A stretch of DNA of 64,000 nt, taken from positions 13,179 through 77,178 of the forward strand of contig MNCI01003042.1 in NCBI GenBank assembly GCA_015680685.1, in the 5' to 3' direction. Positions 2,966-39,256 of the stretch are shown piece after piece. Position 1 is the first letter of the stretch, and each line of letters begins with the position of its first letter. The position numbers were made by a program, and so were the translations under genes. Below the pieces are notes generated by a model. The model had not been told where the DNA came from. It saw only the letters and a program-made list of their open reading frames with translations, and ran no database searches. The stretch comes from Gnetum montanum (Eukaryota > Plantae > Gnetophyta).

Positions 2966-5900
2966 TTACTAAATTGTCACTAACTAGATTAAGGTAAGAC
3001 CACTCCCTAAGAAGAAAATTGATCAAAAAATTCCTTTAATTTATTTACGAGTAGATGAGAATAAACCATGCAAGGGTCTATTAGACTCAAGTTCCAGAGT
3101 GAATTTGATCTCTTATAAAACATATCAAGCATGGAATCTACCATCATTGGAAGAATGCAACATTAGGCTAGAGCTTGTAGATCAATTTGGAATCACTTCT
3201 TTGGGGTAGATAGACAATGTAGTGATCACTATCAATGGGCGGTCCTATCCAGCAAACTTTCTAGTAATTGATGTGAAAAACATTGATAATGAATTCCCAA
3301 TAATCATGGCAAGAGCATGGCTTAGCACAATCAATGCTAAGTGAAGTATGAGAGATTTATCAATTGAAATCTCTAAAGAAGACATGCATGGTGCCATACA
3401 TATGCAATGAATTCTATGCATTATTGTTGAAAGCAAATGATGCAATTAAGGGCTAACACTTCAAAATGTTAATACATACACCATTCCAGTCCACAACAAC
3501 AATGAAAAACTAGTGTGAAAAAGATAGAGCAAGGGCCACCAAAACAAAAGACACCTTGTGGCCACTAACTAAGAATCAACAATCACCTAAAACATGCATG
3601 GAGACATCTAAACCACTTACTAATTGCCAATCCAAGAAAATGACTCCAATTAAAACACCAAAAACCAAATGATTAAGTCATAATCATACACCAAAGGAAA
3701 AAGAAAATAGAGACTTAAATGACCATAACTCCAATTCCATCAAATTATATGGGATGATAGGTGACCATAATAGAGACTTAAATGACCATAATCAAAAAGT
3801 TACATCACTAAAAATAATAGGTGAACCACCTATAATGTATGATCTAGAAGATCTAAGAAGCATTTTCTGAACACTCACCCATGAGTTCAGTCATGGGGGA
3901 AAATGCCTTATCTTAATTTAGGAATTACTAAGTGTTTTTCTATTTTTTTGTTTTACAATTCTTTCCATTTTTCACATTCTTTGAAATTTCCTTATTTTCT
4001 TATACTTTTCCATTTCTTCAATTTTTCATATTCTTTTACATTTGTTAATTCTTTAACATTTTTCATTCTTTACAATTTTTCATAATTTTTACTATCTTTT
4101 CCATTTCTTTTATACTTTGTTTTCAAACCATTTGTGAATAATTTTGATTGTTAATAATACACATTAAATAAAGTAAAAATGTAGTCCAATAGGGTGAAGA
4201 TTTCTCTATGTTATCAAGTTATAAGAGACTAATTATTTGCATAGTGAGCCCACATCATCCATCCATTCATTCCATTAATAACAGGTTCTTACCATGGCCA
4301 TAACAATATTCTTTTCCATCATACAACTAAGAATAAGCTTTTCATCATTATGCCTAGACCAAAAAGTGAAGAACCAAGTGGGAATGAATAGGGTGTGAAA
4401 TCAAGGGAACTTGTGGATTATTATTGTGAGTTCTATTATGTTACTATGGTTTTGTTATATCCTTGTAGATCTAATGAAAAATGGGAGTAAGAGTAAAATA
4501 AGTGCTACCTTTAAAGGTTGACACAATTCAAAAATAAAAAGAGCACAAAATAAATTTCTAGGGGTCCCACTAGAAATACGTGTTACCAATACCTGAAGGT
4601 AGGTGGCTTTTCAAAAATCTAAAAATAAAAATAAAAATAAAGTGCTATGAATAAAAATCATCCCTTGGATAATATGCCAAGTGACAATACCCCATATAAT
4701 ATTCATAGTCTTACAAATGTAATTCCAATAGATGAAATGATGCAATGTCACTAGAATGTGGTTTGGACTTGGTCTAAACTTTTCACAGAAAGGCTAATAT
4801 TACTTTAACCACTAATAAAACACAAGAATTTATTATGCTTATGGTAAGACACCTCAAGTCTCGATTTCTGCAATCCATTCTAAGTCCATCTCATCTCACT
4901 ATTCGAATAGTTATAACTTGTAATTCTATGTAACATAGTGTTATTTTCTAAATTGATGGTACTAACATGTATGTTTTGCTAAAGTGGTATGTGTTACATT
5001 TAACTCCTTAAGTGCCTAAGGACACTTCTATGCATGGTTATACAAGGGCATAAAATGCTAGAGCCTACGTTGGGGATAATTGTTGTATCTTATACATGCC
5101 AAGCAATTCCACATCATCTTGAACCTTCCAAATATTAATAAACACTTCCCATATCACTTACACTCTCCATTCTACATATATAAATTCATTACTCTTCTTA
5201 CCCAACTTATAAACTTTTGTAGCCTAAGATTCCTTCTCTATGAACTTCCAATGACAGATAACAAAAATAAGCATATTCTCATCATCCAAACCCTCTAAGA
5301 TAACCTTAGATCCTTCCAAACATCCAAAGGAATCAATTTTTTTCATCTGATCCTCATGAAACATGCATTTTTTTGGGCTCTAATATCAAGTCACTAATAT
5401 CAGGTCTGCACTAATATCGAATCTCCAATGTTGAGTCCTTGATATTGGGTCCCTTAAAACCTACATATACGTAGGGACTTAGGAAAATTTTTCACATTTT
5501 TCATTTTGAGCTAAAGGAAATTTTTTCATTTTTCTTTTTTGAATTAAGCTTTGACCTCCTAGCTTTCCTAAGCTATATCTCAATCAATATTGCTCAAATT
5601 TTCATGATTCTTAAACCTATTTGATCATGGAGTGCTCAACTTAGTTGTTGGGGGTGCTAGTGAGGAAAATCGAAGCTGATTTTTCCAAAAAATCTAATGC
5701 CCAAAAGGTACTTTAAGGGTAAGTATGAAGAGATAATTGGAATTTTTAAATAATAATCAAACATATTAAAGCCAAAACACTCAATTAATGATCTTAAGGG
5801 CCAATAACCATCATACATAGGGATAAAATGAGCAAATGTGAAAGGTTACCAAGAGATTAACACCTATGTTTTTGAAAATTTTTCTAACTCTGCAATCTTA

Positions 5901-6000
5901 GCAACATAGAACTTAATGAAACTAAGGGTATGAATTAGGTATGAACCTGTTAAGAATACATGCAAAAACCTTAGTAATTTTAATTTCTTAATGATTTCAA

Positions 6001-8705
6001 ATTATCCCAAGAAGAGGAGGAGCACAAGGAGGACCTTTATAAGGAGCAAGCAAATGACCAAGAGGCCAAGGTAGAGGCTGAAATGGAGGCCAATCATGAG
6101 AACATGAGGAGTAGGAAGCACAATCGTTTATCATTCATCAAGACACTCCTACTATACTACAACTGGCCTAAGGAGAGGCAAATGAACCACAAGTTAAAGA
6201 ATAATGCCTCATGTTATCATAGGACTATTTTCAAAAAATTCAAGAAAGACCCATCCTAACCACAGTCATCATGGAAATGAAGTTTGGTCCATTTATGGAA
6301 TTTGTTCCTAAAGTGATATGGATGCAACTCCAAGCGTCATCGTTATGGCCTATGTTGTCATAAAATAGTGAATGGTGCCTTGGAAAAACTTATCAATTTT
6401 GGCACAACAAAGAAGATGGTACTACTGTCAACATTGGAGAAATCTTAGTGTCATTTTCAATCAAAGCAATTGCAGAAGCTCTAAACATCCCCAATGAAGG
6501 GGCACTCATAGCACATTTGTCCATCCAATCTAATCCTGAAACTAGGAAGTTATGGCTGAAACAGGCTTATGGCAAAGAAGATAAAGGATAAATGAACTAA
6601 CTCTAGAGGAGAGAATATACTTTAAAATTGACACTTATCATCTATTCCCAACAAAAGGACTCAATCGACTATCAACTTATGCGACTAGGGAAAATGCAAT
6701 TCTAATGGGAAAGCATAATGTCAACGTTGCACAACTCTATTTTATAGAAATACAACGATGATTTGAAGAAAGAAAGGTAGGGAAGCCAACACTTTCATTC
6801 CCTTGCCTTATCATGAAGTTGTACAAGCAAGCCAAAATCCTGGGATACACCAATGATGTTTTCAAGAGAGCCCAAAATGCTTCATACACTGAGTTACTTA
6901 AATTAGCCCCACCAAAAAAGAATCATGGTGAGGAACAAGAGCAAGAGCAAGAACAAGAGTAATAACATGACCAAATAACAAGTCCCACTACCACTGCCAT
7001 AAGACTATAGACCATCGATGAGCCATCTATAGAAAATTGCAAAAATAATCAATTAGGGAACCAAGGAATAGGCCAATTCATATAGAGTTATCGATAGTGC
7101 CATCAGATCCATAATTTTAGTTGATCCAGCAAGTGGATAGATTTCATTATAGTTAGGAGGAGAGGTATGGTCACAATAGATCTCTTGGAATGTTACATCA
7201 TTCCAAGTGGTGCTAGAGACTAGAGAAGGAGCCATAGTTGTGCTAATGCAACACCAAGATGTAATGGGAGTAGCAGAGGTGATCACCGATCACATTAAAT
7301 AATCCTTCAACATACATATTATACCACTGGTGGACCTAATTGGAGCTAGAGATGCTCAAATGTTAACCATAACCTCAACGACTCCTACTGATTAGGAGGA
7401 TGTACTTGATAGGCTACTGCAAACCAAACAAGTAATGATAACACTTTTTGACATCCCCAGCGATGTCACTACAGTACAATCTGAACTCATAGCTACTAAA
7501 GGAAAATTGGTCATGGTAGAGACTAGGGTAGAGCATGTAAAGGAGAAGTCCTGAAACTACAAGAAGAGCTCACAGCTTTAAGAGCTTAAAGAAGAGATCC
7601 CATACAATTTTTACACCTAAATAGATCTAGCAATTTAGAATGGAGCATATGAGTATATTAATTAAGTAGAGTAAACAATTGGCAAATGAGAAGGAGAAAG
7701 TGATATGAAATGCCTCTATAGCTAAAGCATAGATGTATGCACATGTGAATGCACATATGGTAGTTCAAGAAGAAAACAAACAAAATTAATGTAGACAACC
7801 TAACGTTGACCACTGTGGAGAAGCATAAAAACATTCTAGAAGAGAGCATCCACTAGTTCAAAGAATAACTTATGAGGGTTAACTAGGACATGAGCCGCCT
7901 CGCAAGAAAAAAAAAACCCTCTCTATGGAGGAGGTACACACTATTCAAAAAAAATCAGCTATTGAAATTAGCGTGTGGAAAAACGAGCCAAAGAAACATG
8001 AAAGGCTCAATGAACACTTCCAAAATCATGTGGGCATTTACAAACAAATCAACAAGAAATAAATTTAGATGGCAAAGGCCAAAATCAATTTCATATCAGC
8101 ACAAAATCTTGATTGGAAACCCATCCTAGATAGCTATGCCCTTGTCCACCAAGCAAAAGTGAAAAATAAAAACTTGCAGACTGAGGACTTGAAAGAGTAC
8201 ATGGGGTTAGCTAATCTTTGTTATGCTAACTTGGCCATGTTAATAGCAGGTAGGCCTAGAAATGAGCTAGAACAGCAACTAGCAGCCACCTATGCCTTAT
8301 ATGAGAAAGAGTTTGTAGATTTAAAAGATGCTTTGTAGAAACTCCAAGTAGCAAACACAGAACTAAGCAGTAAAGGTTGGCTATCATGGGTAGAAAGATG
8401 TAGCAGCAAACCTAGCTAAAAGACTATTAGACTATCATGAATTAAAAGAAAAGGCCATAGCATTTGAGCAAGAGAGGAGGTAATTCGTAGCTTGGTATGT
8501 CAAAGAAAACTAAATGTTTTCATAGCTATCATGCTCATGGGACATGCTAATTCCATCATACATTGGTTTATCAACATGGATGGTCCATGATCCTAGAACT
8601 AAAGAAGAAAAACTTCAAGCACTTCTAAACTAATACAGATTTTAGAAGCCTGACGATAAGGGGAAGTAACCAATGGAAGAGCCACCACCACCTGGAACCA
8701 CTTAA
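6001..8705 (+). pseudogene. Extra 3' ORF of element B, decayed
   Basis: MKFGPF..., GEWCLG.TY.FW, AIAEALNIP, YFKI..YHL.P, PCLIMKL, MGLANLCYANLAML and EEPPPPGTT blocks are collinear with the 27386-30238 copy. Confidence 0.8.
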
Positions 8706-8910
8706 AGCTACCTCCAACTTTGTTAATTTTTTCTTCTTTTTGTAAAGTTGTCATGTCATGAAATGTGTCATTTTTGTAAATCCACTGTAGCATTAGAGAG
8801 TCATGTATATAAGGGCTAGTATCATGTAAATTTATCTTCCAATTTTGTAAGAAACTCCACCCTTACTTTTTTTTAACTCATGGATGATTTTTCAGTCAGT
8901 TGTGGGGCTA

Positions 8911-9780
8911 TGATAAATCAAGTTTTTTTGTCAACCATGATATCGGACCTATGATATCAAATCATCAACATTGAGGCATAAGATACGATATTGAGTATCT
9001 GATATTGCATACATGTGTAGGCCTATAAATACAACACTTAGGCACACCATCCATACACAGTTTCATTTAACGCTTAGCAAAATTACATGAGTTTTTTAAC
9101 TCAATTTTAGCACTTAGTATTTAAGAGTGTATGCTTGTAGTGTGATGTTTAGCAATTGAATGGAGTCTTTATTTGAGTGAAATGTACTTGAACACATTTC
9201 ATGAATGGAAATAAAGATCGAGATTACTTCACATCATTACAGCATCACTTAGTCTTTATTGTTTACACTTAGAATAATTTTCTTGTTTTCACATAGGTTA
9301 ATGTTTACTATTTTCTCTAGTTATTGATTTACTTTCTATGCACATTATCATTTTTGTTGTTAACGGGAATGGATACAATTGATTTCAAGTGTTAGATGTG
9401 ATCACTTGGTAACCTAGTAGTATTATCACTTGGTTCACCCAGTAGCGTAATACTTGGTAATCCTAGTAATGATTGCATGAGTCCAAGATGTGTCTGGAGA
9501 ATCAAGAACGAATGTCCATCATATAGGCTAGATTAGATTTTCTTTGCTATCACTTAGATTTAGAAACTACTACCTTTACTTTATGTTTTCTAGGAGAAAT
9601 ATGGCCAACACAACATCATTATCATATGCCTCACTATGAGTCAAACCATACACATCGATTTTACTAGCTCATGTGGGAAGACAACAATCACGAACTCAAT
9701 TACTTGCATAATTACATTGCCTTGTTCACAAAATTTGGCTAGGATCTTGTGTGAGCACTTGTATCTTGTATGATTAAACA
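8911..9780 (+). repeat. 3' LTR of element B with GATATC-type array in U3
   Basis: Follows the PPT. TATAAATA 9024-9031. Shares AATAAAGATCGAGATTACTTCA and CTTGGTAA repeats with LTR A. Confidence 0.8.
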
Positions 9781-11763
9781 AGTACTATACCAAGTTCATA
9801 ATTTGGTTAAACAAGTAGTATATCAAAAACTTTGGGAAAATAGCGAAGACAAAAAATATTTCTATATGAATAGTATCAGAGGAGGCTTTAATTTAAAGAA
9901 AATTTATTCAATTGCTACTATGCTTCATCAATTATTATGTACAAATTAAAAGTGCATGAATAGGATCTCATCATCTAAGAGTTGAAACAAGTAGATGACA
10001 CAAACTTCTTGATAAAAAATGAATATGCTAACTATGTAATACAAATTGCATTGAAGATGAGCATCATATTTTCCTATAGTGTCTATCATTAGAGTAAATT
10101 AAACAAAGATGAAATATTACAATTGTAAATTTGATTGATTTGTTCAAAATGTTACTAAGAATGCTTGGTATTTTTTTAATGATGTTTTCAAAACTCATAA
10201 CATGTATATTTTTATTGTCCAATAGATCCAGAGGACATAATAAAATTTCAATTTTAATTTCTATTTCATGTATAATACTCTAGTGATCAATTATATAATT
10301 CCAAATTATATTTTCCAATTTTTTTTATCTATATAATATAACTTTTTTTCAAAATCAATCCATTCTACTTTTCATTAAAAAAAATCTCTTGGTCAAATCA
10401 TAAAGATATATTATAAATATATTGCTACAATAGTTTTAAACAAATTTTAATATATATTTCAGCTAGAGTGCAAGTCACAATTGTAATTCCAATGACCAAG
10501 ACTAATAAAAATTCAATTTTATCCTTAGTTTCATAACTCTCTAAAAGTCTTATTCAAATATTTTGTACATGATTCTCAAAGCCCAATTATGCAATGTGAC
10601 GTTATATTTTTCAAATTTTACATCTTAGATAAATATTTTTTAAAATAAAATTAAAAAGATATATTCTCTTGCCTAAATCATAAATATATAGCCAAACTAC
10701 AATGAGGAGATTCATGTTTTAACAAAATAAAGGCATGTCAATCTTGATACTACAATTGTTCTAAAGAAAATGTAATATAGTAAGTGTTTTTAAAACACAT
10801 TGAAAGAACTTATGTTACCCATTTTTTTGGGCACTATAAGCATGTTTTATCTTTAATAATATTCTAAGGAATTATAAATAAGTCTACTATGTCGACATCC
10901 ATGTATCAACATAGCCCTGTTGATACATCCTATGTATCAACATAGCCATGTATCAACATAGTCTGGTCTTTTTTCTATATAAATGCATGCACCATCTATG
11001 TTTATGAACCTTTGGTCATTCTTATAGCCAAACTCTTATAGTTTCTTATTTTAGGACTTAGCCAAATTTTCCTCTAAGTACCAACAATGTGTAGAATTGA
11101 TTGAATGGAATCTTATTCAAGTACGTGATGTACACAAACACTTTTTCATGTTAAGAATAAAATCAAAATTAATTCCTTCTATTACAACACTTGGAATAAC
11201 ACTTAGTTTATTTTCTAGCACTTATATAGTTAATATTTTATTCCATAATTGTGTAAGCACAACCACTTTGAACATTAAATATTAATTTTTGGTAATCCTA
11301 GTAATGGATACTTGGTATGCTAAATAGTAACCATTTGGTAACCTAGCAATGTTAGTATAAGTTCAGGATGCACATAGGAATGGATGTTTCACATGTCAAA
11401 TAGTTTAGGTTACTCTTAGTTTTGGAAGTAGTTAGAAATTAATATTTTAATGATAAAAATAAAAAATAAAAAAATCTTATGTCTCAATCATACTTAACCT
11501 TACCCATTGAGCTACACAAGTGGTGATCGGAAACACAATGACCAAGAATGTCACACTAGATCATGTGTAAATGCTTATGATTTTTATGATTGACTGTAGG
11601 AAACTCTTGCCACTCATCATTTGTGTTGTTACTAAGGATTTGGTGTGCTAAGTATCCTAGATAGATAATTCACACAAGCATCATTATAGGAACATAATGA
11701 AACATCATTAGAAAAATAATAATAATATTTTATTCAATGCACACTACAAGAACAAACTAAAAG

Positions 11764-18529: not shown

Positions 18530-19402
18530 TGATGAGTGGCGAGATACCCCTACACTCAACCATACGAATACGAGCATTTTCACGCGTGATCCAGTCGAAC
18601 TCCGCAGACGAACTAGTTGTGGCACCTATACAATTATCCTTAGGTCACAGTTCATTGTCTTCCCACCTAGACTAGTATTATATTTGTCATATATGGTTTA
18701 GTACAGAGTGAGGTGTATGATGTGTTCCCAATCTAATGCTACTCCTGAAGGCAATGGAAGATAATATTAACTAAGCTAAGTTAGGAGAAAGGGTAAGAGA
18801 ATCTAATCTAGCCTAAGTGCGATGAGCATCTGTTCCTTGATCATCTGTACACATCTTGGACTTCATGCACGACTACCACTAGGATTACCAAGTGCAGATC
18901 CTAGGTATGCCATTGGGTTACCAAGTAATCACACTTAAATACTCGTAATCAAGTCGTACTCATTCCGCGTTGCTAGGAGATAAGGGTGAGAGAGACTAAT
19001 TAAGAAAGAAGTAAATAACAATTAAATAAATAAATGAACAAAGTGAATGCTGCAATGATGAAGTAATCTCGATCTTTATTGCTGGTCATGTGCATGTCCA
19101 AGTACGTCACACTCGAATAAAGGATGTCGTACAATTACATTCCCCACACTGCGGGCAGACACTGGAAAATAATCTATCTCTGGAGGGATCAAACTGCCAG
19201 AGCTTCGCTACTCCTATTTCTATGTTGTGAAATGAGGGAGAGTTGCCTTTTATTTATAGAATTGGCAGTGGGAAGGACACGATATCGTAGCCCATGCGAT
19301 ATCACGACTGTGATATCCCAACTATGATATCACAACCACTGGGATATCACAACTGTGATATCACGGTAGTGATATCACAGCCAGCAAATTCATGACTCAT
19401 CA
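18530..19402 (-). mobile_element. Element E: solo LTR (873 bp) inserted in element C
   Basis: TGATGAG...CTCATCA termini. TSD GCTGT (18525-18529) / GTTGT (19403-19407). No PBS or PPT adjacent. Seven GATATC units at 19281-19376. Confidence 0.9.
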
Positions 19403-20639
19403 GTTGTGTTGGCATGGTTTCTAATCTAGATCAACATTAAATTTTCAAACTACCTAAGGATACCTTATGAAATGGTTATGCAAGGGTATTTATAGCATGG
19501 ACCTATTTTGGGAAGAACCCACTTGCACAACTCTTGGGCATCTAGCTTAGAATCCACTACCACATGCCCAGTTTCATTTGCTTGCAATCCTAATGATTTT
19601 AGCCATCTAACTTTGCTTGTTTTTTGAATTGATTTATGTCCTGGAAACATAACATTTCCAAATCTAATTATGAGCTTCTTTGTGTTAAAAACCTTAACTA
19701 GAATCTTAATTTTACTATCTGCATCTTTAGAACCCCTTTTTGGCTTCCACTTGACCATTAGTTTGTGTTAGAACTATCAAAAATCCCTTAGTTTTTCAAG
19801 TGAAAATTTTTGTCTACAAATATATCAATGCATCCATGAGAAGCTTCTAAACATAAGCTCTACATTGTTGGGGCATTAACAACTATTTTTCCAACAAAAT
19901 TTCAAAAACCCCCATAGAGAGTTAAATTAACTCAAGCATTAGAATAATATTAAAAACTTCACCAATGTCAATTCCAAGCTTAGATACAAAAGAAGGAGGG
20001 TTAGTGTCAAGTTAGTAACTGGTTGTAAAATCTTGCCAAATTGCATGGATGAGTTTCCTTTTTAGATTTTGTAGATACTAGGGCATTCCCTAAATGTGAT
20101 GTGCAATAATCATATGATTGAAGATTATTTAAAATAACTACAAATAAACAAAGTTCTAGCTCTTCATAAAGACGAATGATGAAAAAGAACTCATGTAGCC
20201 TACCCCATTTTCTTAGGACAAGGCCAAGAGGATGATTATTATTATTATTATTATTACTATCATATTAAAAATAAAAGGTATCAACAATTTAACTACCATT
20301 AACACCTCAAGACTCAATCTCAACAACCACTTAAGAGCTCTAACCCCTAATTTTTTTGAAATTAATACTAACCAAGGGTAATTGAAAGGTATATAAAATT
20401 AGGAATTAAAGCTAAGACTAATCCATGATCATCCTTGTGATCACAAATGGCTTTCAAATGAGGTCCACAATTAAGTGACCATCATAGCTTAAGTAGAAGC
20501 ACCCATGGGAAAAAAGAGAATAGCAACAACAACAACAAGAGCAAGCCACTAAGGCCACCCATGCCATGGGGCCCCTGAGAGAAGAATTCAAGGTAAAATT
20601 TGTCCACCAAATTTCCATTATTGAGACAAAATAATCAAA

Positions 20640-23430: not shown

Positions 23431-24559
23431 TTTAAGATTCGATCTTGACCATATTTGTATAGGAATAACTAGTCCATTCTTATAGTATCTCCAATTTTGA
23501 TGGATTTAATTATAAGCACTCAAACATTTTGTAATATGACACTCATAGTTTATTAAAATGTTACTTAGTCAATAGTTTAGTTCCATACTTCCCAATTTTA
23601 TAAACTTGATCCTACTTTTATCACTCAAGAACAAGTTTTCAGTCAATCGTGGATGTATGATGAAGTATAAATAAGCATGATACTTTGATGGGCATGTTTC
23701 AACGTAACTCTATTAATGCATCCCCATTGATGGATCTTATGATGCATTAACATTGTCTAATCTTTTACTTGTATAAATGAGCACACCATCCACATTTTAT
23801 GGACCTTTGGTCATTCTTATAGCTAGATTCTTGTAGTTTCATCCTATAGGACTTAGTCCAATTTTCCTTTAAGTGCCTAAAGCATGGATAGAATTAATTG
23901 AATGGAGTTTTATTTGAGTGCATGATGTAGCTAAACACAACTACATGTCAGTAATAAAATTAAAATTCATTTCTTCTACTGTAATACTTGAAATAACAAA
24001 TAGTTTATTTTTAACACTTTACTTTCTAGCACTTAGATAATTACTATTTTATTTCATAATTGTGTACAATCACTTTGAACATAAAATATTAATATTTGGT
24101 CATCCCAGCAGTTGATACTTGGTACACCAAGTAATAACCATTTGGTAACATAGTAACAGTAGTATAAGTTCATAATGCAAATGGATAATGAGAATGGATG
24201 CTTCACGTGTAGGCTAGTTTAGGTTACTCTTAGTTGATACTTAACTATATCCATTAAGCTACAAAAGTGATGATCAAGAAAGAACCAAAAATGTCATGCT
24301 TAATTATCTAGGATACTGTTAGCCTAAGGTTCCATGAAATTCAACCGAATCATGTTTACATGCTTGTGATTTGTACAGTTAAGCATAGGAAGCTCTTGCT
24401 ACTCAAATATTGTTAAGAACATCAAATATTGTTAAGTGTCTTTAATATTGTTAAGTGTCTTTATTTTCATTTGAACAAAAAAATAACTATACCTGCTTGA
24501 AATTTATAAAGTTAAAAAGTAATGCAATAATTAGCTTGAGGAATGTTGTCATTTTATTT

Positions 24560-26202: not shown

Positions 26203-27134
26203 TGATGAGCGGCTAGGTACCACTACGCCCAACCATAAGAATCACGAGCATTTACACGTGACCTGGTCGAATTCCGTAGACTGTAAGTACTTAACATACA
26301 CCAGACTCTAACCAATGAAACTTTGGGTTAAAACGGTCATTGTCTTCCTAATCTCACTTGTGATGTTCCGTTTACGATGGTTAAGTGAGACTAAGGCTAA
26401 TGATTTTTATAGCTTTTTGCATATCTTTTGGCGGCTAATTTAAGGTATGAAAGGTAAGGAATAAACTATGATCTAATCTCTAATTATCCTAACTTGTATT
26501 CTAACTATTCCTAGCATAAGTATCCGGTCCCATCTTCCAAGCACGTTCTGAGCATCTCCTAACACTTCTGGGCTACCAGACGTTAAGCGTCACTAGGTTT
26601 ACCAAGTGTTTGATTTACGTTCGAGATGGTCGTACTTAAGGCCTTTACGAACTATGAATGAATAATAATGATTAAAATAATAATAACAGAAACTTAAGTA
26701 ATTAACATGTAACTAGCAAAGCATAAATATATTAAACTACTAAATGCATAAAATAGCTAAGTCCAAATACTGCAAGGAATGCTTGAATAGTTCGTCTTTA
26801 TTGTCGTCATGCCAATGGGCTCAAATACATCAACACTCGAATAAAAAGCTGATCACTTTTCTTACACATGCTGCGGGCACTTGGAAAATATTCTATCTTC
26901 TGCAGGAACAAACTGCAAGAGCTTCACTACAACTAACTAAAAGATGCCTAAATGAGGTGGAAGGCCCTCTTATTTATAGGCCGAGAAAGGTGACTATGTA
27001 AACAGGGCCACATCGATGGGGGAAGGCCACGTCAACAGGCCCACGTCAACGCGGTTGGCCACGTTGATGCGGCCGCATATACGCAGCCCCGTATACGTGG
27101 CCCGGCCGATGCAGGACTCAAAGACACTTCATCA
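26203..27134 (-). repeat. 3' LTR of element D
   Basis: Near-identical to 38345-39256; differences are mainly transitions. Adjacent PPT at 27135-27148. Confidence 0.95.
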
Positions 27135-27148
27135 TACCCCCACGACTG
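27135..27148 (-). promoter_or_regulatory. Polypurine tract (CAGTCGTGGGGGTA) of element D
   Basis: Abuts the 3' LTR. The same motif abuts the LTRs at 2183, 8911 and 61797. Confidence 0.85.
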
Positions 27149-27385
27149 AGCAAAAACTTGTCCTCGAGTTACTATACAAATTGGAAGGTATGGATTCTTA
27201 TTTGCAACACAAATAACTAAAACACATACATCACGCACACAGGACACAACATGAATTTGACCAAGTGCCCGAGTTATAGAGGAGAACAAATCACAAAAAT
27301 GGCTGTGTTCAAAGACAAAATTGAACGCCTCGCTGATCCTGGAGCCTCTGTTGTGTAGAATGATGCACAAAATTGCTGGAGAGGA

Positions 27386-30238
27386 TCACACTGTCCCTTG
27401 GGGCGGTGGTTCTAACAGACCTTCTCCAGCCTCTAGCCCATGTGTTGGTGGCGACACGAATGACAGTTGTCTTGCGGTAGCTGCGACTTCTGGAGGTAGT
27501 TGGAAAGCCTCCAAGAGAACCCTCATCTTTTCTTCTTTGCTTCTGGGGTCATTCACAGTCCAGGCAGCTTCTCCAATGTGTGCTAGAGCTGGAACTTCCC
27601 AAGGGCATGGCAACGTTAGAAAGAGTTCTTTTAGATTGACAAACCAAGTTGCGAATTGCTTACGTTCGATGTCGAACACTCGAATTGATGCCTGCAGCTG
27701 CTGGTAGTCATTCATTCTTTGGGCCAAGTCCTCCATGACTATATGTTGTCCTTCAAAGCTTGGGTGGAGGACCTCGAGTTCGGTGTTTGCTATTGCCAGC
27801 TTCTGTTTTGTTGCCTTGTGCGCCTGGAACTCACCCTTGTATAAGGAATACGAGGCGGCCACTTGCTTTTCGAATTCTGACCATGGTCTTCTAGTTGTGA
27901 GCATAGCTAGGTTTGCATATCAAAGATTGGCCAATTCCATGTATTCTGTCATCTCCTCGATTTGCAGCTCCTTTAGGCAGATTTTTACTTTGTTGTAGGC
28001 ATTCAACCCATCAAAGATAGATGGCCATACATTGCCTCCCTCTTGAAGCTGCTGGAGCACTTGGTTCATCTTGGCTTTGGCTACTTGAATGTACTTCTCT
28101 TTTACCTCCTTCTGCAATCCCTCTTGGTCTCTGTAATAATTTTTGACTCTTTCAAATTTCAGGGCCTCATTTTTCCAAGTGGAAATCTCGATTGCAGACT
28201 TCTATCGCAATGCCCGAACCTCCTCCATTGACAAATTTCAATTTTCAATTGCCAACCTTCTTATGTCTACATTCACCCTAGCTAGCTCCTCCTACTGTTG
28301 GTGGATAAAATATCTCATGTGTTCATTCTCCGTACCAACATTACGTAGGCGATGAACTTCCGCGGCTAGTTGCACGTTCTCCTGGCGAACCTCCACCAAG
28401 TCCTTCTCTAAGTGATACGCTCGGGCGTCTGCTATGGACTTGTCGAGGATCGCTGTCTTTCGTTCATCCTCAATGACCTAAAGTTTAAGCTAAAGCTGTT
28501 GAAAAGCTTCATCTCTGGTGATTTCGTGATCTAGGATGGCTGGATCGGCAAGCTGGGCTCTTAATTGGGCTACCTCTATTGCCAAGCGCTGACAAGCATC
28601 TTGAGCAGCTTCTAGTTGCCCTTCCAAGATGATGCTCTTGCCCCTTACCGATAGCAGCTCTAACTGGGTTGCAATGATGTTGTCCAGAAGGTCAAAGACA
28701 TCCCAAAGCGGTTGCCTGGTTCCCACCAGTCGGTCCAACAGCTCTTCATGTTGGGCTACGTCAATCTGGCTATGCGAAGTTTGGCAAACACCTGTACATC
28801 TTAAAGTCCATGAATGTTTGGTATAGGTGCTGCCGATGCATTAAGAGCAGTAGCAATTGTGTCAGCAACCACTTCGGCCACAACTTCTTATCCTTGGTGC
28901 TGCATCACCAGGATCGTCGCCCCTTCACCATCTTCCAAGCAGACCAAGAAGGCATCAGCATTCCCTAAGATTTTAGGGAATAACTATTGGGTTGAGGTTG
29001 ATACATCTCGGATGCTCGGATCTATTCTGGTTGGGACTTGTGCTCGAGTAGTGGATAAGATTGGCCCTGCCCTTTCAAGCAAGCTAACTGATTGAGCCAC
29101 TTGCTCTAGGTGGCTCATGGCAAGGCGATAGACCGAAGGATCTTCTCCTCCACCAGTCCTGCCAGATTACTCTTGCTGACTCAAGAGCGTTTCCCAAATC
29201 TCACAGAGGTATTCTACTATTTTTTGCGAGCTCAGCTGCATTGTTTGTGCAGGTGGTGGAGGTGGTTGCTACTCCTCCTCTGTCTGTGTGGCAGCAGGAG
29301 TTTTGTCTTTCATCATCTCTCGCGACGAGGCAATTGGGATGTGCCGGAGTGCATCGTTGAAATATTGTGCTCTCCCTGCCCATTTGCACAATTTCCGAAT
29401 TAGGCAGGAAAAATGGGAGAGCTCATCTTCCACATTCGTTCTTAGTGAACCTTTTTTCAATTTCCAGAAACAATAGCTATGGAAGACTCATGGGAAATTT
29501 CCCACTCAAGGCGACACACACACGAGCGGAGAAGGCTGTGATTTTGCTAGGTCTTACCATTGGGTTTAGGTGGTAAGACACGATTTTAAAGTACACTCTC
29601 TCTACCGTGGTCAAGGAGCCGAATTCCTTGCGCTCTACACCATAGCACCATTGGGTCCATTGCGCTTTTACCTCTAGATCGGCGTGTTTTGGAATTTCTG
29701 CCACATCTGCCCCAGTTTTAGGCAACCCTAGAGCTTGCACTATCGCCTCTGAAGAGTAAGAGACATAAATGTCTTTGATCCTTACTCTTGACCCTGGTTG
29801 CCGATTCATCCAGAAGAGATAGGTTTCTCCTAAGTACCACTCACCATTGGTTGTGATGATTGGCCACATCGGAGAGGTCTGTAATTGGAGTCTCACATCT
29901 TTTGGAGCGTTATCGAGGAATGGTCCAAAATTTAACTCTTGGAGGACCGTCCATTGCACCTCGTGTGGCATGATAGCATCAAGGTAGGCTTGGGTCAAGG
30001 TGACTTCAAGCCGTGGTGCTATCCCAGGAGTCTCATCCCCTAGCGATTACACGTCATGAATCTCCTCTTCAAGAATCTGGTGAACAGATTCCACCTCAGG
30101 TCTTTCGCGGAAGGGCCCAGTTGCATGAGAGCCCTTCGCATACTCTGGCTATTGCACACCTCGTCCCCTTCCCGTGCATGGGCGCTTGTCCCTAGGTTGA
30201 GACAATCCTTCGTCCCTTGGTTGCCTCGGTTTGGGTAT
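27386..30238 (-). pseudogene. Extra 3' ORF (about 950 codons) of element D: basic N-terminus, plant-transposon (PF20167/PF03078-like) domain, long coiled coil
   Basis: ORF fragments 29477-29998, 29269-29460, 28490-28738, 27920-28117 and 27386-27904 form one reading path with stops and frameshifts. Start inferred as ATG>ATA (PKPRQPRD). Domain call is from motif memory (V..S...I..ALGLP; L.P...S; LI.KLC..AG). Confidence 0.8.
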
Positions 30239-32254
30239 ATACTTTCATAAGTAGTTTAAGATGGTCTGTATATACTTTCTCAATTTGACCAAGTTATGTT
30301 AATGACACAGGCACACTGTTAAGTTTCCTGAAGCATTAAGTTAGGGGTTAGGGCCAAGGTTTTTATAATTTAACAAACTAATTAATTAATTAATTAGTTA
30401 TCGTTACTTTCACAAAGGCACCACACCCCCATGACTAAAAGCATACCTCCAGGTGCTTAAAAGGGCAAGGATCGGTTGATGAGGACTCGCGACGGAATGT
30501 AGGTGCATTGGGAAGGGTTAGGCAAAAAAAATGGCAAAAAATCCCGTCAGTTTGGACTCCAAATAATGGAAAATGAAGAAGTGCGGTGGGGTATATATAG
30601 GGGTTAGGCGTTGCGTTGACGGGGCCCCATCGACACAGGTGTGTTCACTCGTTGACCAGCATTGACCAACCCTTAAAAAGCCTGAAATGATAAATTTGAA
30701 ACTCCAAATTGGGGCAGTTGAAGCATGTGAGGGGCCCAGACATGGTCAAGGACATGAGGAAGGTAATTAAACATGAAAAAGAGACAAAAATAGGAGAACA
30801 AGACTCAAAAAGAACTCCACAGGCAATAAATCAAGCGATGGGACTTGAAAACTAGGCAACCCCGAAATCCAAAGGGTGGGAGGCTTAACAAGTGGGACCA
30901 AGGAAATGCAGGTGGGTCCTCCCAAGAGCAGGTCATAGCCTTAGTAGCCCCTGCAAAGCCCTCAACACCGAGGTCCGTGGGCCCCGAGGCCAAGAAATGG
31001 TGCTCACCAGGTAAGACTCCAACCCAAGAGATCCCACCAAGGCATGGAAAGCCCATGGATAGCACGACACACTTTCACAACATAAAACAGGTAATGAGGT
31101 GAGCGGTAGAGAGAATGGGATGAAGAGAGAGACGAGAGAATGGTATTCCATTCATTGGTCACAAGAAACCCCATGTGGAGATGTGGTTAACTGACCTAGT
31201 AGAACCGTTCCAAAGTTCAGACCCAAAACCATCCACATCCAGTGATATTGCAGTAATAAACAAAGTCCCAACCATCCCCCAAGGAGGCAAGAATGACCTC
31301 ACAGAGAACCACCACTCCAACAAACATGAGAAGTAGGAAGTGAAATGGGCCAAAGTTAGAGGGAACCAAGGAAGTCCCATAACTAGTGCATGTGGCCCGA
31401 GAGAGGCAGTCTAAGGGGTGTGCTTTGAATTCCCCCACGATTCATTTTTCTTTTATTTTTTGTGGGGGAACCACACTATGCGAAGACCCATGCGTGTTTG
31501 CATGCATCCGACCAAGGGGTGTGCTTTGAATCCTCATTTTATTTGTTTTTTTTTTTGTTTTTTTTTTTTTGTTTTTGAATTTTTGAATTTTTCCAGTGAG
31601 GACCACACCATGCAAGGTCGGACTGCCTAGAAGCTTCCATGGAGAGAGACTTGGAGTGGGAGGAAATCTGTAAGGGCACACCGGCAACCCAGGGAACAGA
31701 ACATAACAACAAATAAAGTGTTCTCCTTGAAGTCACACCCGATTCAAACCATTAGGCCATCCCTCAGTCTGGAAACTACACAAGTCATACATTAATTAAA
31801 ATTTTGTTATGGTAAGGGGTTGCATGTGCTCAACAGAAGGGAAACCATGGAGTGGGTGAATGGGTGGATGACGTGAACTCACTACCAATTTTATGAGTGA
31901 AAAGTAGATGTAAAATCCAAAAAGAACCATGCGAGGGTGGAAACTAGACAACTAGGTAGATGAGTGTACATTACCCATCGCAACGAAAAGCATCCGCGCC
32001 AAACCTCTGAAGACAACAAGATGACATATTAGCAATTACATGAAAAAATAAAACAGTTATAAAGAAATGAAAAATAAGTAAAGAAAGGAAAAAATGTACA
32101 AAGAAGTTGCAAACGTATAAACGATAGTGAAAAACAAAAAAGTGTAAAACAAAAAATGATAAAACAGCAAGGGGTGTAGTGGAATGGATTAGCAGGAATG
32201 ACGGTCTCCCCCATGACTGGGTGGAAAGGAGGAGACACGAAAAATGGAGTGTGG

Positions 32255-35200
32255 CTAACCTGATGATGATGAGGTGGATGCACTAGTTGAGCAGAGTTCG
32301 CAGAGAGGTTTCAGTTGTTGGTGGTTGATTAACTATGTTCTGGTGGGATCCACAGGTTTGTAAATAAGTAAGGCCCTAGATGGGAAGGTTTCGAAGACTA
32401 TGTAAGGCCCCTCCCATAATGTTTGAAACTTGGTCGGTTGAGATACATGTGAGGGGTTCCAGTACAACACTTTATCTCCACATCTAAATGTGACCTTCCA
32501 AATCCTAAGATCGTGTCATTTTTTATTGTAAGCCTTGTGGATCTCATTGGAGGATAGGGCCACTAATCGGTTCTCATCTAGCACACTTAGATTGATCAGT
32601 CATTCACGTTGTGCTAGCAAGAGGTCAAGGCCTAAGTCAATGGTAGTGGATAGTGTCTAGAGTTCTACCTGGATTGGAAGTATTGGCAACTTTCCATACA
32701 CTAAATCATAAGGAGAGTACCCTACAGGAAGTTTCCAAGTGGAGCGATAGGCCCATAGGGCATCATTAAGCTTAGTGCTCCAATCCCTCCTGTATTTGCT
32801 GATGGTTCAGGTAAGGATCTTAGTGATCTCCCTATTGGTGACTTCGACTTGCCCATTGGCTTGGGGGTGATAGAGAGTTGTGAATTTATGTGTTACCCCT
32901 AAGCGTTGCATGAGTTTCTGAAAAGTGACACCCGTAAAGTGAGTTCCATTATCAGAAATGAGTGCACGTGGCACTCCAACCCTGTTAATGATTTGTTGTT
33001 GGACAAATCGTGCGATGGTGTTGGAAGAAAAATCAATGACGACGGCCACTTTTGCCCACTTTGTACAATAGTCCACAGCTACGATGATGTATGCCTTTCC
33101 ATGTGACAGGGGTGTGATGGATCCCATGAAGTCGATGCCCCAAATGTCAAGGGCTCCAGTGGCTGGATCCACTGTTGAGGTCCCTCTAACCGTGTCTTCA
33201 TCCCACCGTCCCTCTGGAATCATTCACAGGAGTAGGCAAACCATTGTGTGTCCCTGAAGATAGTGGGCCAATAATATCCTGCAAGCAGGATCTTAATGGT
33301 AGTGCGGCATCCAGCATAGTAGCCCCACAAGGGCCCTCATGAGCATCCTGGAGGACACGCAGTGTATCATCATTAGGGACACACCATCGAACCAAGCCAT
33401 CTACCCACACCTTATAAAGGTGGTCATTGATTTCCATGAAACGCTTGGCCTTATGGAGAAACTGTTATTTCTGCTGATGGTTCCACTCCTTAGGTAGCTC
33501 CTGGGTTGTGAGGTAGGTGAGGATGCGATTGAACCAAGGGGATTCCTTGATTGCTTGAGGATCAACCGCACCTGTGAAGAGGAGTTCATCAAGAAATTGG
33601 TTGAATAAGGGCTCCTCCTCTTCTGCATCATCCCATCGCACCCGAGACAAGTGGTCAATGACCATATTCTCAGTCCTCTTTCTATCTACCATGGTAAGAT
33701 CAAACTCCTGAAGAATCACCAGCCACTAGATAATGCGGGGGCTCACCGTTGGTTTGTTCATCAGGAACCAGATAGCACTGTGGTCAATATGCACAAACAC
33801 CTTGTATCCGAGCACATAGTGCCAGAATTTTTCCAAGGTGAACACCATTGCCATCAACTCCTTTTCAGTGGTGGTGTAGTTCAACTGAGCACCCACAATG
33901 CTACGGCTTGCACAGTGGATATAATAAGGACATTTCTACTCATCACATTGTGTAAGCACAACTCCCATGGTGAAGTTGGATGCATCCATCATAATGTGAA
34001 AGGGTCTAGACCAATCAGGGGCTCGTAGAACTGGAGTTTCTACAAGTTTTTGTTTCAGCACTTGGAATGCAGATTCGCACTTCTTGGTCCAGATGAACAG
34101 AGCATCCTTCTTTGTCAGCTCTACCAACAACTTGGTGATCTTTGAGAAGTTTTCAATGAATCGTCAGTAGTAACCAGTGTATCCAAGGAATGACCGAACA
34201 TCTTTGACGGTACTTGGTTGGCGAGTAATTCCTTGGATAACCCTGATCTTTTTAGGATCTACGCTGATCCCTATTTGTGAGATGCGATGCCCCAACACAA
34301 TGCCTTCTTGGACCATCAAATGTCTTTTCTGCCAATTGAGCCACAGATTGATGTCTACACACCGTTTGAGAACCTGCTCAAGATGGTCCAAGGCTTGCTC
34401 AAATGTGACCCCATAGGTGGAAAAGTCATCCATGAAGACTTCTACACCATTGCTGATTTGTTACTGAAAAATGCTTAAGATAAGGCGTTGGAACGTAGTG
34501 GGTGCATTGCACAGGCCAAAGGGCATCTTCTTGTATGCAAAAGTCCCCCATGGACTCGTGAAAGTAGTTTTGGCCTAGTCCTTTAGTGCTATTTGGATCT
34601 GGTTATAACCACTATAACCATCCAAAAAGCTGTAGTAGAGGTGCCTAGCCATGGTGTCCAACACTTGGTCCATAAATGGGAGCGAGAAGTGGTCCTTCAA
34701 GGTCGCCATATTGAGCAACCAGAAATCAATGCAAACCCTTCACTTGCCATCTTTCTTGGGCACGATAACGAGTGGGCTAACCCATTCACTATCAGCAACA
34801 GAATAAATGAATCTTGCCTTTAGAAACTATTCGATTTCATCTTTTACAACCTGCTTCAATTTGGGATTCAACCGTCTTTATAACTGTCATCATGGCTTCA
34901 TGGAAGGGTCAAGGTAGATCTGATGCTAGCAAACCCTGGGATCAACTCCCGTCAACTCAGGATATGACCTTGCAAATGCAGCAACCCATTTGTTTACCAC
35001 CTCCAACAACTTATTCTTCTGTTCTAGAGCAAGGGTGGCATTAATGATTACCAACTTTCCATTTTGCAAAAATGCATACTCTAAGTGAGCTGGTAAAGAC
35101 TTTAAATCCATGGGCTCTTGTTTGAAGCTCTCAGGGATTTCTAGCTGTCCCCAGTCATCTTGGTCATCAATAGTAGAGACCTGTTGATGAATCTCTTCCA

Positions 35201-38177
35201 TTTCATCTCTGCTGTCAATGTAGGCTTGTACAAGCCCCTCTGATGATTCCATGCACAATGTGCTGCTAGCTTCAGCTGTCAGCCACTGGGTGCCTTCTTG
35301 GTTAGTGGCTGCTGCGTACAAGCACTATTGAACAGGTGATTCCTCGGTACACTAGCTGCATGCTTGAATGGATATCCGCTTAGCGAACCATAATTTCTGC
35401 ACACAGTTGCACCCTAAGTCGCTGTACGCAATGCATGGAACATGTTTCTTCTCGATCTTCCCGAAAGGATTTTCCTTGGAAATTTCAAGGGATAGATCAT
35501 AGAGGCTTAATCATGCGTCCAACGTGCTTAGCCAAGCCCTTCCCATGATGATTGGGAAGTTCCCCTTACAGTTCTCTACACAGATGACCAGGAAATCAGC
35601 AAGGTAGGACCACTCACAGACAGTGGTTACAATGTCCTCCACCAATCCCAAGGGAACGGTGATGGACTGGTTTGCTAACTTGAGCCAAATGTTGCTCTTC
35701 TTTAGCGAGGGCAGGTTCCAGTTCTTGTACATATCATGAGAGATCAAATTAACCCCTAACCCTGAGTCTAAAAGAGCTATGAATGGCTCATTCCCTACCA
35801 CCTGGAGATAGATGAGGGGGCTTCCCAAATTAGTAAATTTTTGGGGAAGGTGACTTGCTTTGATCCAGTCGGTCACAGCATGCATGAGCATGACCGTCTG
35901 GACGTTAGAGTGTTGTTGTTGTTGGCTTGGAGGCTGCTCTGGCAGTGGAGTAGTGGAGGCGCTTGTAGGTTCAAAGGCACTGGCCACAGGTGTATGCGAG
36001 GGTATGTTCAAATTGTTGGGCTAGAAAAAGGGATGTTTTTGTGGCTTGGGTTCTGGTCCACACGGCTAAGGTGCCAGTTGTAAGTTAACAGCCCTCGTAG
36101 CGTTTCGTTGTTGCGGCTGTGGTGGTATCTCTCCCTGCATCGGAGGTGCAGGTGGTAGCTGAGTGGGATGTGGTGGAGCAGTGGTAAGAGAAGGTGATGG
36201 AGGATAGAAGAGATGTGGGTTTTCCCCTCAGGGTGATGGAGATTGAGGTCGAAAATACTCTGGAGGGTGGTAATGACTTTGAAAGGCCGCATGGCTAGAA
36301 GAGTCCCTTGGAGAGACTGGTTGCTGAACATAGTACCCATAAGGATCTAGCTGTTTGTAAGGGTACTACTACCTTGAAGGTGGCATTCCCCATGTTTGTG
36401 GGTGCTGCCACTGTTGGAAGTATTCATATGGTTGTGGTGGCGCTCCACTTGGATAGTATCCTTACTGCTGCTGGTGGAATTGCCTAGAATTGCCTTGTGG
36501 ATAAGGAAACTTTCAGGGTGTTTACCTTTGTGCCAAGCAAGGGTTCAATGCATACACCCCAGACTCTTGAAGATGTAACACCACAAGACAACATCCCTTA
36601 GGATGTTCATATTGGCATATGCCACATTTNTTTGCCAAAATTTCAGATGTGAACTTTTGTAACAGCAAAGTCTTTCGGCTTACCGCTACTTCCAGCGATG
36701 ATTCTTCCTCCTAATCATAAAAATGGACTTCCCTTTTTCTGAGGGAAGGATCCTGGTTGAATTCTTCTGCACTCTCCTTTTTTCTGAGTTCTCCTTCCTC
36801 CTTGGCCACTTGTTCAATGAGGCATTGCAACTGATGGGCCCTTAGCTCTTACAGTTGCCCCTAGGCATACACGTCAAGGGTCTTTCACATTTCAAAACAG
36901 ATCCCATCAATGATGTGGCGAAGCTGTGCCTGCTAAGAGTAACCATGACCAGGGCACTAATGCAACAACGAGTAGTACCTACTCATGGTGGCATCCAAGG
37001 GTTCATGATTCGCTTGTTTCCAGCCTTGGATTTGTCGTCTCAGGTTCGCCACTCTGGAGTATGTTTGATATTTGTCATTGAAAATTTCAAGCATTATACT
37101 CCATCTCTTGATTGATTCCAGATCCAAGGATCAATACCAACTTTCAGCTTCTTTGATGAGTGTGCGAGGGAACAGCTTCAGCCTTTGCCAATTATTGTCA
37201 ATATTTTGCAGGGTGCAGGTGTCATGGAACGCCGGTAGGTGGGCCTGTGGATCACAGTTGTATCCCCCTTCAAACCTGGGGATGTTGTTCATATCAACAT
37301 GCTTGATCTGGCTATCCTTTATGTGCCTACTAGGAATTTGAACTGCCTCAAAGATCTAGAGCATACTCCGGGTAGCCAACAACGGCTTATCTGAATCATA
37401 GTCCTACTGAGGACCACGATGTCTATGACGATTCCAACTATCCCTCCTTTCATGCTTGTAAGCATCACACAATGGTTTGCGTATTTCCTCTTATTTCTCC
37501 TTTTGGTCCTTCCGATCCTTTCAAACCATTTTACTCCCATCCTTTTGCTTCCTCCTACCTCGATTATGATCAAAGCCTGAGCTGGATGAAGGAGAAGGAG
37601 AGCAAGAGGATTGAGAAGAAGGAGAACGATCTCTCCCTCTACCCTAATGACGGTCCTAATCATCCTGTTCATCCTTGCTATGTAACCCTTCATCCCCTTG
37701 GAAATCTTGGCCACCTAGGTGCTTAGAATGAATCATGGATTGGAGGACCTGGTGCCCCAGGGGAAGTTCAGTTGAATGGGTGTCATGAAAGATGGGATCC
37801 CCATCATCTAGAAGCCCTTGTGAAAATAAGGGGTTACTAAATTATTTCCCCTTCAACTATTCATATTTTTCTGCCTACTGCTGATCTCTTGCTCGTTGAG
37901 CCTCATTGGGATGATAGTCCCGATAGTCATGGTCCTCCATGACATACTCTGCTCCCAGGTACTGGATGCCCAATCTTCCAAGATTGTGAAATAGCATCGC
38001 AGGGGCCAATCAGTCAGGAGGATGTACAATATTGCCCTTCATGTCCCGCCATTGTAGATGCTCATCCTGATGTAGGATGAACGTGAAATCAGGGACGTAC
38101 TCATCGGGATGCTTGTACACCACCCGACATTCTTGTGGCACTGGTGGGGTGGATATCTCTCTCCTGTAAGAAGACAT
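32255..38177 (-). pseudogene. gag-pol polyprotein of element D, stop-interrupted
   Basis: gag core IPRFEGG...RLKLFPRTL about 37130-37290. Protease ALLDSGLGVNLI about 35760. RT VFMDDFS 34433. RNase H DASNF and YTTTEKEL 33860-33990. Integrase [21 protein letters not shown] 32807-33223. WEGPY motif about 32410. Confidence 0.93.
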
Positions 38178-38325
38178 GCTGGACGTTAGATGGTCCACAT
38201 GATTGATGTACCTTAATACTAACTTTTAATCCACCTAGCGTGCGTAAATATTTCTATCCTGGGTTCGTTCCAATGACTTGAATGATAATTTCACTAAGGT
38301 TAGATGATGCATGTAAGACATATAG

Positions 38326-38343
38326 TCCTCAGCAACGGCGCCA
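38326..38343 (-). promoter_or_regulatory. Primer binding site TGGCGCCGTTGCTGAGGA (tRNA-Asp type, characteristic of Athila)
   Basis: Lies 1 nt inside the 5' LTR; two mismatches to the Athila PBS TGGCGCCGTTGCCGGGGA. Confidence 0.9.
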
Positions 38344-38344
38344 A

Positions 38345-39256
38345 TGATGAGCAACTAGGTACCCCTACGCCCAACCATACGAATCACGAGCGTTCACACG
38401 TGACCCAATCGAATTCCGTTGACTGTAAGTACTTAACATACACCAGACTCTAACCAATGGAACTTTGGGTTAGAACAGTCATTATCTTCCTAATCTCACT
38501 TGTGATGTTCCGTTTACGATGGTTAAGTGAGACTAAGTCTAATGATTTTTATAGCTTTTGCATATATTTTGGCGGCTAATTTAAGGTATGAAAGGTAAGG
38601 AATAAACTATTATCTAATCTCTAATTATCCTAACTTGTATTCTAACTATTCCTAGCATAAGTATCTGGTCCCATCTTCCGAGCACGTTCTGAGCATCTCC
38701 TAACACTTCTGGGCTACCAGACGTTAAGCGTCACTAGGTTTACCAAGTGTTTGATTTACATTCAAGATGGTTGTACTTATGGACTTTACGAACTACGAAT
38801 GAATAATAACGATTAAAATAATAATAACAGAAACTTAAGTAATTAACATGTAACTAGCAAAGCATAAATATATTAAACTACTGAATGCATAAAATAGCTG
38901 AGTCCAAATGATGCAAGGAATGCTTGAATAGTTTGTCTTTATTGTTGTCATGCCAAGGGGCTCAGATACATCAACGCTTGAATAAAGAGCCGATCACTTT
39001 TCTTACACCTGCTACAGGCACTTGGAAAATATTCTATCTCCTTCGGGAACAAACTGCAAAAGCTTCGCTACAACTAATTGAAAGATGCCTAAATGAGGTG
39101 GAAGGCCCTCTTATTTATAGGCCAAGAAAGGCAGCTGCGTAAACAAGGCCACATCGATGGGGAAGGCCACGTCGACGGGCCCGCGTCGACGTTGCCACGT
39201 ATACGCGGCCCTATATACGTGGCCCAGCCAACGCAGGACTCAAAGACACTTCATCA
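38345..39256 (-). repeat. 5' LTR of element D
   Basis: TGATGAG...CTTCATCA, followed by the PBS on the minus strand. TATAAATA about 39112-39119. Confidence 0.95.

Follow-up and report, generated by a model that had tools for sequence, protein, structure and literature searches.

The DNA examined here is a 64,000-nt window of the Gnetum montanum contig MNCI01003042.1 (all coordinates are window positions). It consists of nested, decayed long terminal repeat (LTR) retrotransposons of a single lineage, and we report on short palindromes arrayed both in the U3 of the LTR and upstream of an extra open reading frame (ORF2) in members of that lineage. The elements are denoted A, B, C, D and F, and a solo LTR is nested in C. 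Element D is full-length; its LTRs (39256-38345 and 27134-26203) are identical at 846 of 912 aligned bases, end in TGATG...CATCA and are flanked by a 5-bp target duplication. Pfam places Retrotrans_gag, RVT_1, RT_RNaseH and rve in that order, with a protease motif read by eye, and TGGCGCCGTTGC follows the 5' LTR as the primer site, which may be the tRNA-Asp-type primer-binding site typical of Athila. This order excludes that of Ty1/copia, in which integrase (INT) precedes reverse transcriptase (RT), so D is not a Sirevirus despite a similar promoter layout. Pfam scans of 32000-38300 detected neither a second RNase H (aRH, the Tat marker) nor a chromodomain, although decayed domains may escape Pfam. 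The order gag, protease (PR), RT, RNase H (RH), INT, the single RNase H and the sense 3' ORF, here with a weak and tentative PF20167-like region, are shared with the Athila clade (PMC6317226, PMC11728184, PMC7197481). The initial annotation as an Athila-type element stands, and the elements fit that clade as defined in PMC6317226, short of an RT tree. Element B has lost most of pol and retains the spacer, ORF2, polypurine tract (PPT) and LTR in one run.

We identified 41 palindromic units at ten sites, all in one common 8-bp frame, YR-N4-YR, which is CpG-ended in the least decayed copies and encloses one of three self-complementary centres (ATAT, TCGA or TATA). Across the 11 sites examined for spacing, successive units lie 14 bp apart in 16 of 31 gaps and 28 bp apart in two more. 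The B internal and B U3 sites each hold four ATAT units where 0.07 and 0.19 were expected (p = 0.0002 for both, 5000 dinucleotide shuffles), and every site count, a stray TCGA match in the B U3 aside, reached p <= 0.012; unit patterns and site windows were picked after reading the sequences, so these p-values describe clusters and are not blind tests. The arrays are real and well above chance. The U3 arrays begin within ~30 bp of the LTR start in U3s 110-150 bp long, and the units cluster at two promoter-like sites only. ATAT-centre matches number 43 in the 64 kb and form clusters of at least three at four places, namely the B internal site, the B U3, the solo LTR at 19280 and a stretch at 48563. 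That last stretch (48563-48620) is AT-rich, lies outside the mapped LTRs, combines loose ATAT and TCGA matches at irregular spacing and is likely a chance occurrence. A longer, 10-bp palindrome was rejected: pairing at arm position 5 was seen in only 9 of the 41 units against 11.8 expected, and the symmetry ends at 8 bp.

The centre is identical at the U3 and at the internal site in all three elements that keep both (B, C and D). Unit counts are given in Table 1, to which the 5' U3 of D adds three TCGA and two TATA units and the U3 of F two of each, while A has none; the counts are block-diagonal, ATAT units occurring at no C, D or F site. A test of 11-mer similarity covering B and C matched the B internal site to its cognate U3 (z = 2.9, others <1.2), and the C internal site to its own without significance (z = 1.4). 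ATAT and TCGA centres cannot be interconverted by C>T or G>A changes, and we therefore rejected the idea that the B and D cores are deamination products of each other; the C core could have arisen by decay or derivation from the D type, so C is not a third class. The D arrays are CpG-rich (observed/expected 0.9-1.2 against 0.41 in the D body). The initial annotation had proposed a core shared within each element in a constant 14-bp phase, and both parts hold, as does the spacing of the B internal array after small corrections. Its fifth unit in the B U3, near 8967, departs from the ATAT pattern; what stands there instead is a match of TCGA type at 8963, itself at chance level. The three-unit internal array described for D is reduced to two 8-mers, the unit at 30643 being a loose match only. 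The GTCGAC-type core ascribed to D does recur as TCGA at both of its sites, but the TATA-centre units in its U3 had been missed.

Table 1 Coordinates of the elements, palindrome arrays and promoter-like features in the window.
Feature	Position	Strand	Remarks
B internal array	5381..5447	plus	4 exact ATAT 8-mers at 5381, 5395, 5412, 5440; one-mismatch unit at 5426; spacing 14/17/14/14
B internal TATA-like site (putative)	5460..5470	plus	CCTACATATAC at 5460; also matches TATA-centre unit pattern (5464)
Putative splice donor, 5' leader intron before B ORF2	5719..5724	plus	GTAAGT; inferred from sequence
B ORF2	6001..8730 (approximate ends)	plus	many stops and frameshifts; PF20167-like N-terminal region, coiled-coil C-terminal half
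B 3' LTR	8911..9560	plus	TG start at 8911; probably truncated, 3' end not located
B U3 array	8938..9007	plus	ATAT units at 8938, 8952, 8986, 9000; TCGA-type match at 8963
C 5' U3 array	10890..10958	plus	5 TCGA-type units
Solo LTR nested in C	18530..19402	minus	5 exact ATAT-centre units at 19280-19377
C internal site (weak)	19823..19881	plus	2 TCGA-type units at a distance of 51 bp; no recognisable TATA
C 3' U3 array	23711..23752	plus	3 TCGA-type units
Element D, full-length decayed Athila-like Ty3/gypsy	26203..39256	minus	gag-PR-RT-RH-INT, ORF2
D 3' U3 array	27011..27097	minus	4 TCGA-centre and 2 TATA-centre units
D ORF2 (broken)	27400..30240	minus	sense, ~900 codons, between pol and 3' LTR
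D internal TATA-like site	30590-30601	minus	downstream of internal array; also matches TATA-centre unit pattern (30592)
D internal array	30614..30668	minus	TCGA 8-mers at 30614, 30628 (p = 0.003); weaker 6-mer matches at 30651, 30661
Element F	60981..62857	minus	D-type U3 joined to A-type R/U5; A-type ORF2 lacking a large internal part; internal array not found

The internal arrays occupy a consistent place. A conserved non-coding block (30875-30955, 5030-5080, 19480-19530 and 62686-62721), present in B, C, D and also F and marked by a depth peak among family contigs, is followed ~240-300 bp downstream by the array in B, C and D. In B and D the array is succeeded by a TATA-like word, a donor-like word 150-260 bp further on, pyrimidine-rich DNA and ORF2; donor-like words stand at comparable places in D (30441-30450) and F (~62468). 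Downstream of the B U3 array, TATAAATA occurs at 9024, and internal and LTR core promoters align across sites about as well as within sites (scores 36.5-43). This anatomy is that of a putative promoter with a leader intron, though a clear TATA is missing from C and the words resembling TATA in B and D also fit the TATA-centre unit. RNA reads aligned to D numbered 2090, 1328 and 845 (runs X13, X16 and X18), of which only 6, 5 and 3 were 99% alike. At the D internal site, where ten reads came from X14, this sparse and diverged RNA gave a depth of 0-3 with no 5' pile-up; read starts piled up on D only at 33688 and 32670, and among these few, diverged reads we saw no spliced read supporting the leader intron.

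We also examined D-family copies outside the window by aligning contigs from DNA runs X2, X5 and X6 (coded organisms A, B and C) to the D internal promoter, which gave 4320, 5001 and 4252 contigs over 781 bp; this alignment covered D, not B. At 30611 and 30649 (three of three runs) and 30617 (two of three), in or beside units, most of the contig depth carries CpG where D has TpG, so that the D variants look like deamination. Many contigs depart from D at 30625-30630 into TATA-centre units 14 bp apart, with loose-end groups of 96, 96 and 33 contigs at 30626 (X2, X5 and X6), and a TATA-centre unit was seen by eye in 10 of the 11 array-site inserts displayed (nine further rows were not displayed). 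Such units are absent from D's own internal array, while its 3' U3 holds two. Because their alignments include the flank on the TATA side, which is unlike the LTR flank, we take these contigs to be internal copies; the D family would then carry both U3 unit types at its internal site, although short contigs cannot join a U3 and an internal site in one copy. Contig depth falls to its minimum in the distal array (30632-30658) and is high over the upstream block, the donor-like region (30443-30550) and the DNA before ORF2 (30254-30307); the array also shows joints between different unit numbers. In the D family, the array is thus a changeable part between steadier flanks. In RNA run X13, a loose-end group of 77 reads at 27128 carries ATAT-type U3 units of other copies. 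Metagenome contigs yielded no relatives by protein or by PPT/LTR-start pattern.

ORF2 is the only accessory candidate found for a protein reading these arrays. Between subfamilies, synonymous sites are at or near saturation (pS 0.68-0.86) while pN is 0.33-0.43 across six pairwise blocks, compared with a pN of 0.19-0.29 in gag, RT and RH, and second codon positions are the best kept in all six blocks. ORF2 has therefore been under long purifying selection, somewhat weaker than that on gag, RT and RH. Its N-terminus is basic, and heptad stretches in the C-terminal half form the long coiled coil that had been predicted at first. The best PF20167 match, in D, has E = 0.0023 and 18.3 bits against a cut-off of 45. 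The AIVQALGLP stretch of D, which we had presumed to resemble PMD and DUF1985 motifs, was not confirmed by the Pfam search, in which ORF2 matched neither family up to E = 5. A membrane segment was not detected either, the Kyte-Doolittle maximum over 19 residues being 1.58 in the N-terminal 315 aa of D and <1.0 in C-terminal D and A, with the frameshifted middle of D outside the scan. Among 1862 candidates the only relative was a 103-aa, B-type fragment (P0001), the same single match being recovered in 1.84 billion representatives. The Protein Data Bank gave no sequence match, and two structure models (pLDDT 37.7 and 34.4) were too poor for fold comparison, the one fold search returning nothing at E <= 0.001. 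Published predictions are nuclear localization of a sunflower Athila ORF with PF20167 (PMC11728184) and coiled-coil oligomerisation of both the ATHILA domain and the transposon protein VANC (PMC13547354).

The distribution of centres follows element relationships in part. R/U5 and the ORF2 3' end unite A, B, F and the solo LTR in one group (0.66-0.85), separate from C and D, and this agrees with ATAT in B and the solo LTR and TCGA in C and D. The LTRs at 2183-2963 (A), 18530-19402 (solo) and 60981-61797 (F) are 82-85% alike in R/U5 and differ in U3, having no array, an ATAT array and a D-type array, respectively; as a module, U3 is swapped between elements or dropped. In element F the start of ORF2 is fused directly to the final 250 bp of that frame (61979-62857, minus); the element shows neither internal array nor TATA, and is possibly a non-autonomous derivative. 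It would fit a derivative borrowing the regulator of D, and equally a plain recombinant. The LTRs flanking C (10863-11640 and 23658-24390) are only ~75% identical and have slightly different units, suggesting either great age for C or recombination between two copies.

We tentatively favour an explanation, possible rather than probable in our estimation, in which each array would be the enhancer of its own promoter and a single dimeric factor, most probably the ORF2 protein itself, would read both. Transcription of ORF2 would begin at the internal TATA-like site and give an mRNA whose leader holds a short intron, and ORF2, through its basic N-terminus, PF20167-like region and coiled coil, would form oligomers on the units; it would raise its own expression first and act on the LTR next, in the manner of foamy virus Tas. 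The effect could be activation or removal of silencing, and unit copying between the two sites together with selection would keep the arrays in step. Linkage of U3 and ORF2 accounts for their joint travel, not for identical units at two arrays, which need copying, a shared reader, or both. Copying is suggested by the unit mix shared in the D family, and selection by a dimeric reader is suggested by the constancy of position, frame and phase together with the symmetry of the centres. Subfamilies whose ORF2 synonymous sites are saturated have the 8-bp frame and 14-bp phase in common, and a reader that changes the centre but keeps the geometry would most simply be a protein evolving with the element. 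A wider claim about the 'env-like' ORF2 of Athila is possible, though we hold it less likely than not: it may be an element-encoded, sequence-specific DNA-binding regulator of CG-N4-CG palindromes in a 14-bp phase, acting at its own promoter and at the U3, with a centre particular to each subfamily.

Several observations weigh against ORF2 as the reader. The two-site comparison rests on three elements, two of them of one core class, and the internal site of C is weak. Two centres occur together in the D U3, fitting a centre-blind reader. D-type U3s also contain ACGTGG words (one to four per LTR), which we take to be the core of a host bZIP site. PF20167 matches one of the four ORF2 rows, below cut-off, and no DNA-binding domain is demonstrated. 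As the initial annotation had recognised, F breaks the linkage of core and ORF2, its D-type U3 (0.79 to D) standing on an A-type body with an A-type ORF2 remnant, and the U3 of A has no array. C and D share the TCGA centre, yet the C-D similarity of their ORF2 N-termini (0.58) compares with 0.59 and 0.54 to B; B, C and D are about equidistant. Sireviruses without the extra ORF still keep their LTR palindromes (PMC2829016, Table 3), and in Arabidopsis the ATHILA ORF2 message has been described as a splice product of the full-length RNA (PMC7197481).

Much of this would also suit host proteins as readers of both arrays, either one factor per subfamily (in D possibly a bZIP protein on ACGTGG) or a general reader of the CpG ends, with ORF2 and gag-pol co-expressed and ORF2 otherwise employed. 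Such host reading, which we rate less likely than not and only slightly less probable than reading by ORF2, equally predicts the agreement of the two sites, and is favoured by the ACGTGG/CCACGT words (4, 3 and 1 in the D 3', D 5' and F U3s), the paired centres of D, the U3 swap of F and the palindromes of ENV-less Sireviruses, host-bound repeated U3 boxes being usual in plant LTRs (PMC2829016, in part). However, ACGT is absent from the B, solo and C arrays and from the internal site of D, so several host factors would need to share one 8-bp frame and 14-bp phase, and a common host binding site for Sirevirus motifs was not identifiable in the 2010 study by Bousios (PMC2829016).

It is rather unlikely that the internal array is a set of units copied from U3, which gene conversion or template switching would keep similar, and has little function of its own, while ORF2 comes from a spliced, LTR-driven RNA. 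Both U3 unit types occur with similar spacers at D-family internal sites, core promoters align across sites about as well as they do within them, and the spacer varies most within the array, all of which suit this reading, as does the splicing described for ATHILA ORF2 (PMC7197481). On the other hand, random copying favours no site, whereas the array keeps the same position in B, C and D after the conserved block, beside a TATA-like site (not recognisable in C) and, in B and D, a donor-like word; moreover, a single switch between the arrays would remove ORF2 and the PPT. Still less probable is that the arrays are mainly CpG-rich, hairpin-prone targets of small RNAs and methylation whose centre shifts escape small interfering RNA (siRNA) matching at both targeted sites. 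This has been proposed for the palindrome region of maize Sireviruses, where siRNA matches and sequence changes are concentrated (PMC4728375). The CpG richness of the D arrays agrees with it, but escape requires neither a fixed 14-bp phase nor a symmetric centre, and symmetry ending at 8 bp is short for a hairpin.

The layout itself is known from Sireviruses, in which element-specific palindromes precede both the LTR TATA and the ENV-like ORF, are absent from the linker of ENV-less members, and led to an internal promoter being proposed, not proven (PMC2829016; Bousios 2010); these palindromes have since been tied to siRNAs (PMC4728375; Bousios 2016). Further shared traits are the CpG in the palindromes and their clustering both before the LTR TATA and before the extra 3' ORF, with 77 of 79 linker copies lying before ENV, and one Vitis motif also has a GTCGAC core (PMC2829016). 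Sireviruses differ in being Ty1/copia elements with a CGG-CCG signature, which our CG-N4-CG units (YR-N4-YR without CGG-CCG) do not share, and in arrays placed 200-400 bp into long LTRs; the relevant sections of PMC2829016 propose no 14-bp phase and no self-encoded reader. The initial annotation's view that no such description existed therefore survives for Athila alone: among the top-ranked open-access papers in our searches, supplements (e.g. of PMC2829016 and PMC6317226) aside, we found no report of paired U3 and internal arrays or of a self-encoded DNA-binding regulator in Athila. Thus, the layout is apparently new for Athila-like elements, and what is new and testable is that the centres change together while the frame stays constant.

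VANC of the VANDAL transposons, offered at first as the model, shares family-specific short tandem motifs in non-coding DNA and an accessory transposon protein with a predicted coiled coil (PMC5735166). However, VANDALs are DNA transposons whose motifs are non-palindromic and spread over introns, intergenic and terminal regions, and binding and demethylation are demonstrated for VANC (PMC5735166); a Pfam search up to E = 5 gave no DUF1985 or PMD match for ORF2. Foamy virus Tas (Bel1) is the closer working model, as the product of an accessory gene with an internal promoter that binds upstream of that promoter and in U3. Foamy viruses are animal retroviruses in which the circuit is experimental and here inferred, and palindrome arrays are not described in the part of PMC3185757 that covers it. 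Within plants, Arabidopsis Athila elements differ in making ORF2 from a spliced subgenomic RNA (PMC7197481, in part), whereas ORF2 here spans ~900 codons with a long coiled coil. Retand/Grande elements (TRP28) belong to the Tat clade and have an antisense ORF with another domain, and their repeats are not reported to match U3 in the passages of PMC11963269 and PMC7264820 that treat them.

The function of extra ORFs in plant LTR retrotransposons has been called unclear or open (PMC7264820, PMC11963269, PMC12844716), and so has the role of Athila ORFs in epigenetic state (PMC12844716). Against this background, the arrays provide named candidate binding sites with a built-in specificity control (three centres, one frame) and make ORF2 as a regulator testable. 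Should ORF2 prove to be the reader, plant elements of a very abundant class would govern their own expression, amounting to a foamy-virus-like feedback circuit or VANC-like anti-silencing in a plant LTR retrotransposon, with ORF2-deleted, F-like derivatives borrowing the array of another subfamily. If host factors are the readers, the arrays would be tidy but ordinary subfamily-specific U3 enhancers. A Sirevirus layout in a Ty3/gypsy lineage also suggests independent arrival in two superfamilies.

Other features of the window concern the same lineage or the DNA around it. The ~50 bp before the 3' LTR, including the PPT, are among the best-kept non-coding DNA of the lineage (2136-2189, 8861-8923, 23620-23676, 27116-27184 and 61779-61835), and this stretch attracted many partial RNA reads. 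A dispersed repeat of 110-140 bp occurs in both orientations in AT-rich DNA (39378-39515, 39649-39786, 45323-45421, 46472-46609, 58914-59067 and 25893-26013) and perhaps represents the ends of a non-autonomous DNA transposon. A GC-rich island (50-54%) at 55665-58310 contains the longest open frame of the window (522 aa, minus), a 1.1-kb direct repeat with 65% identity and strong G skew lies at 40219-41332 and 43437-44591, and short tandem duplications are found at 49565-49698 and 54506-54998.

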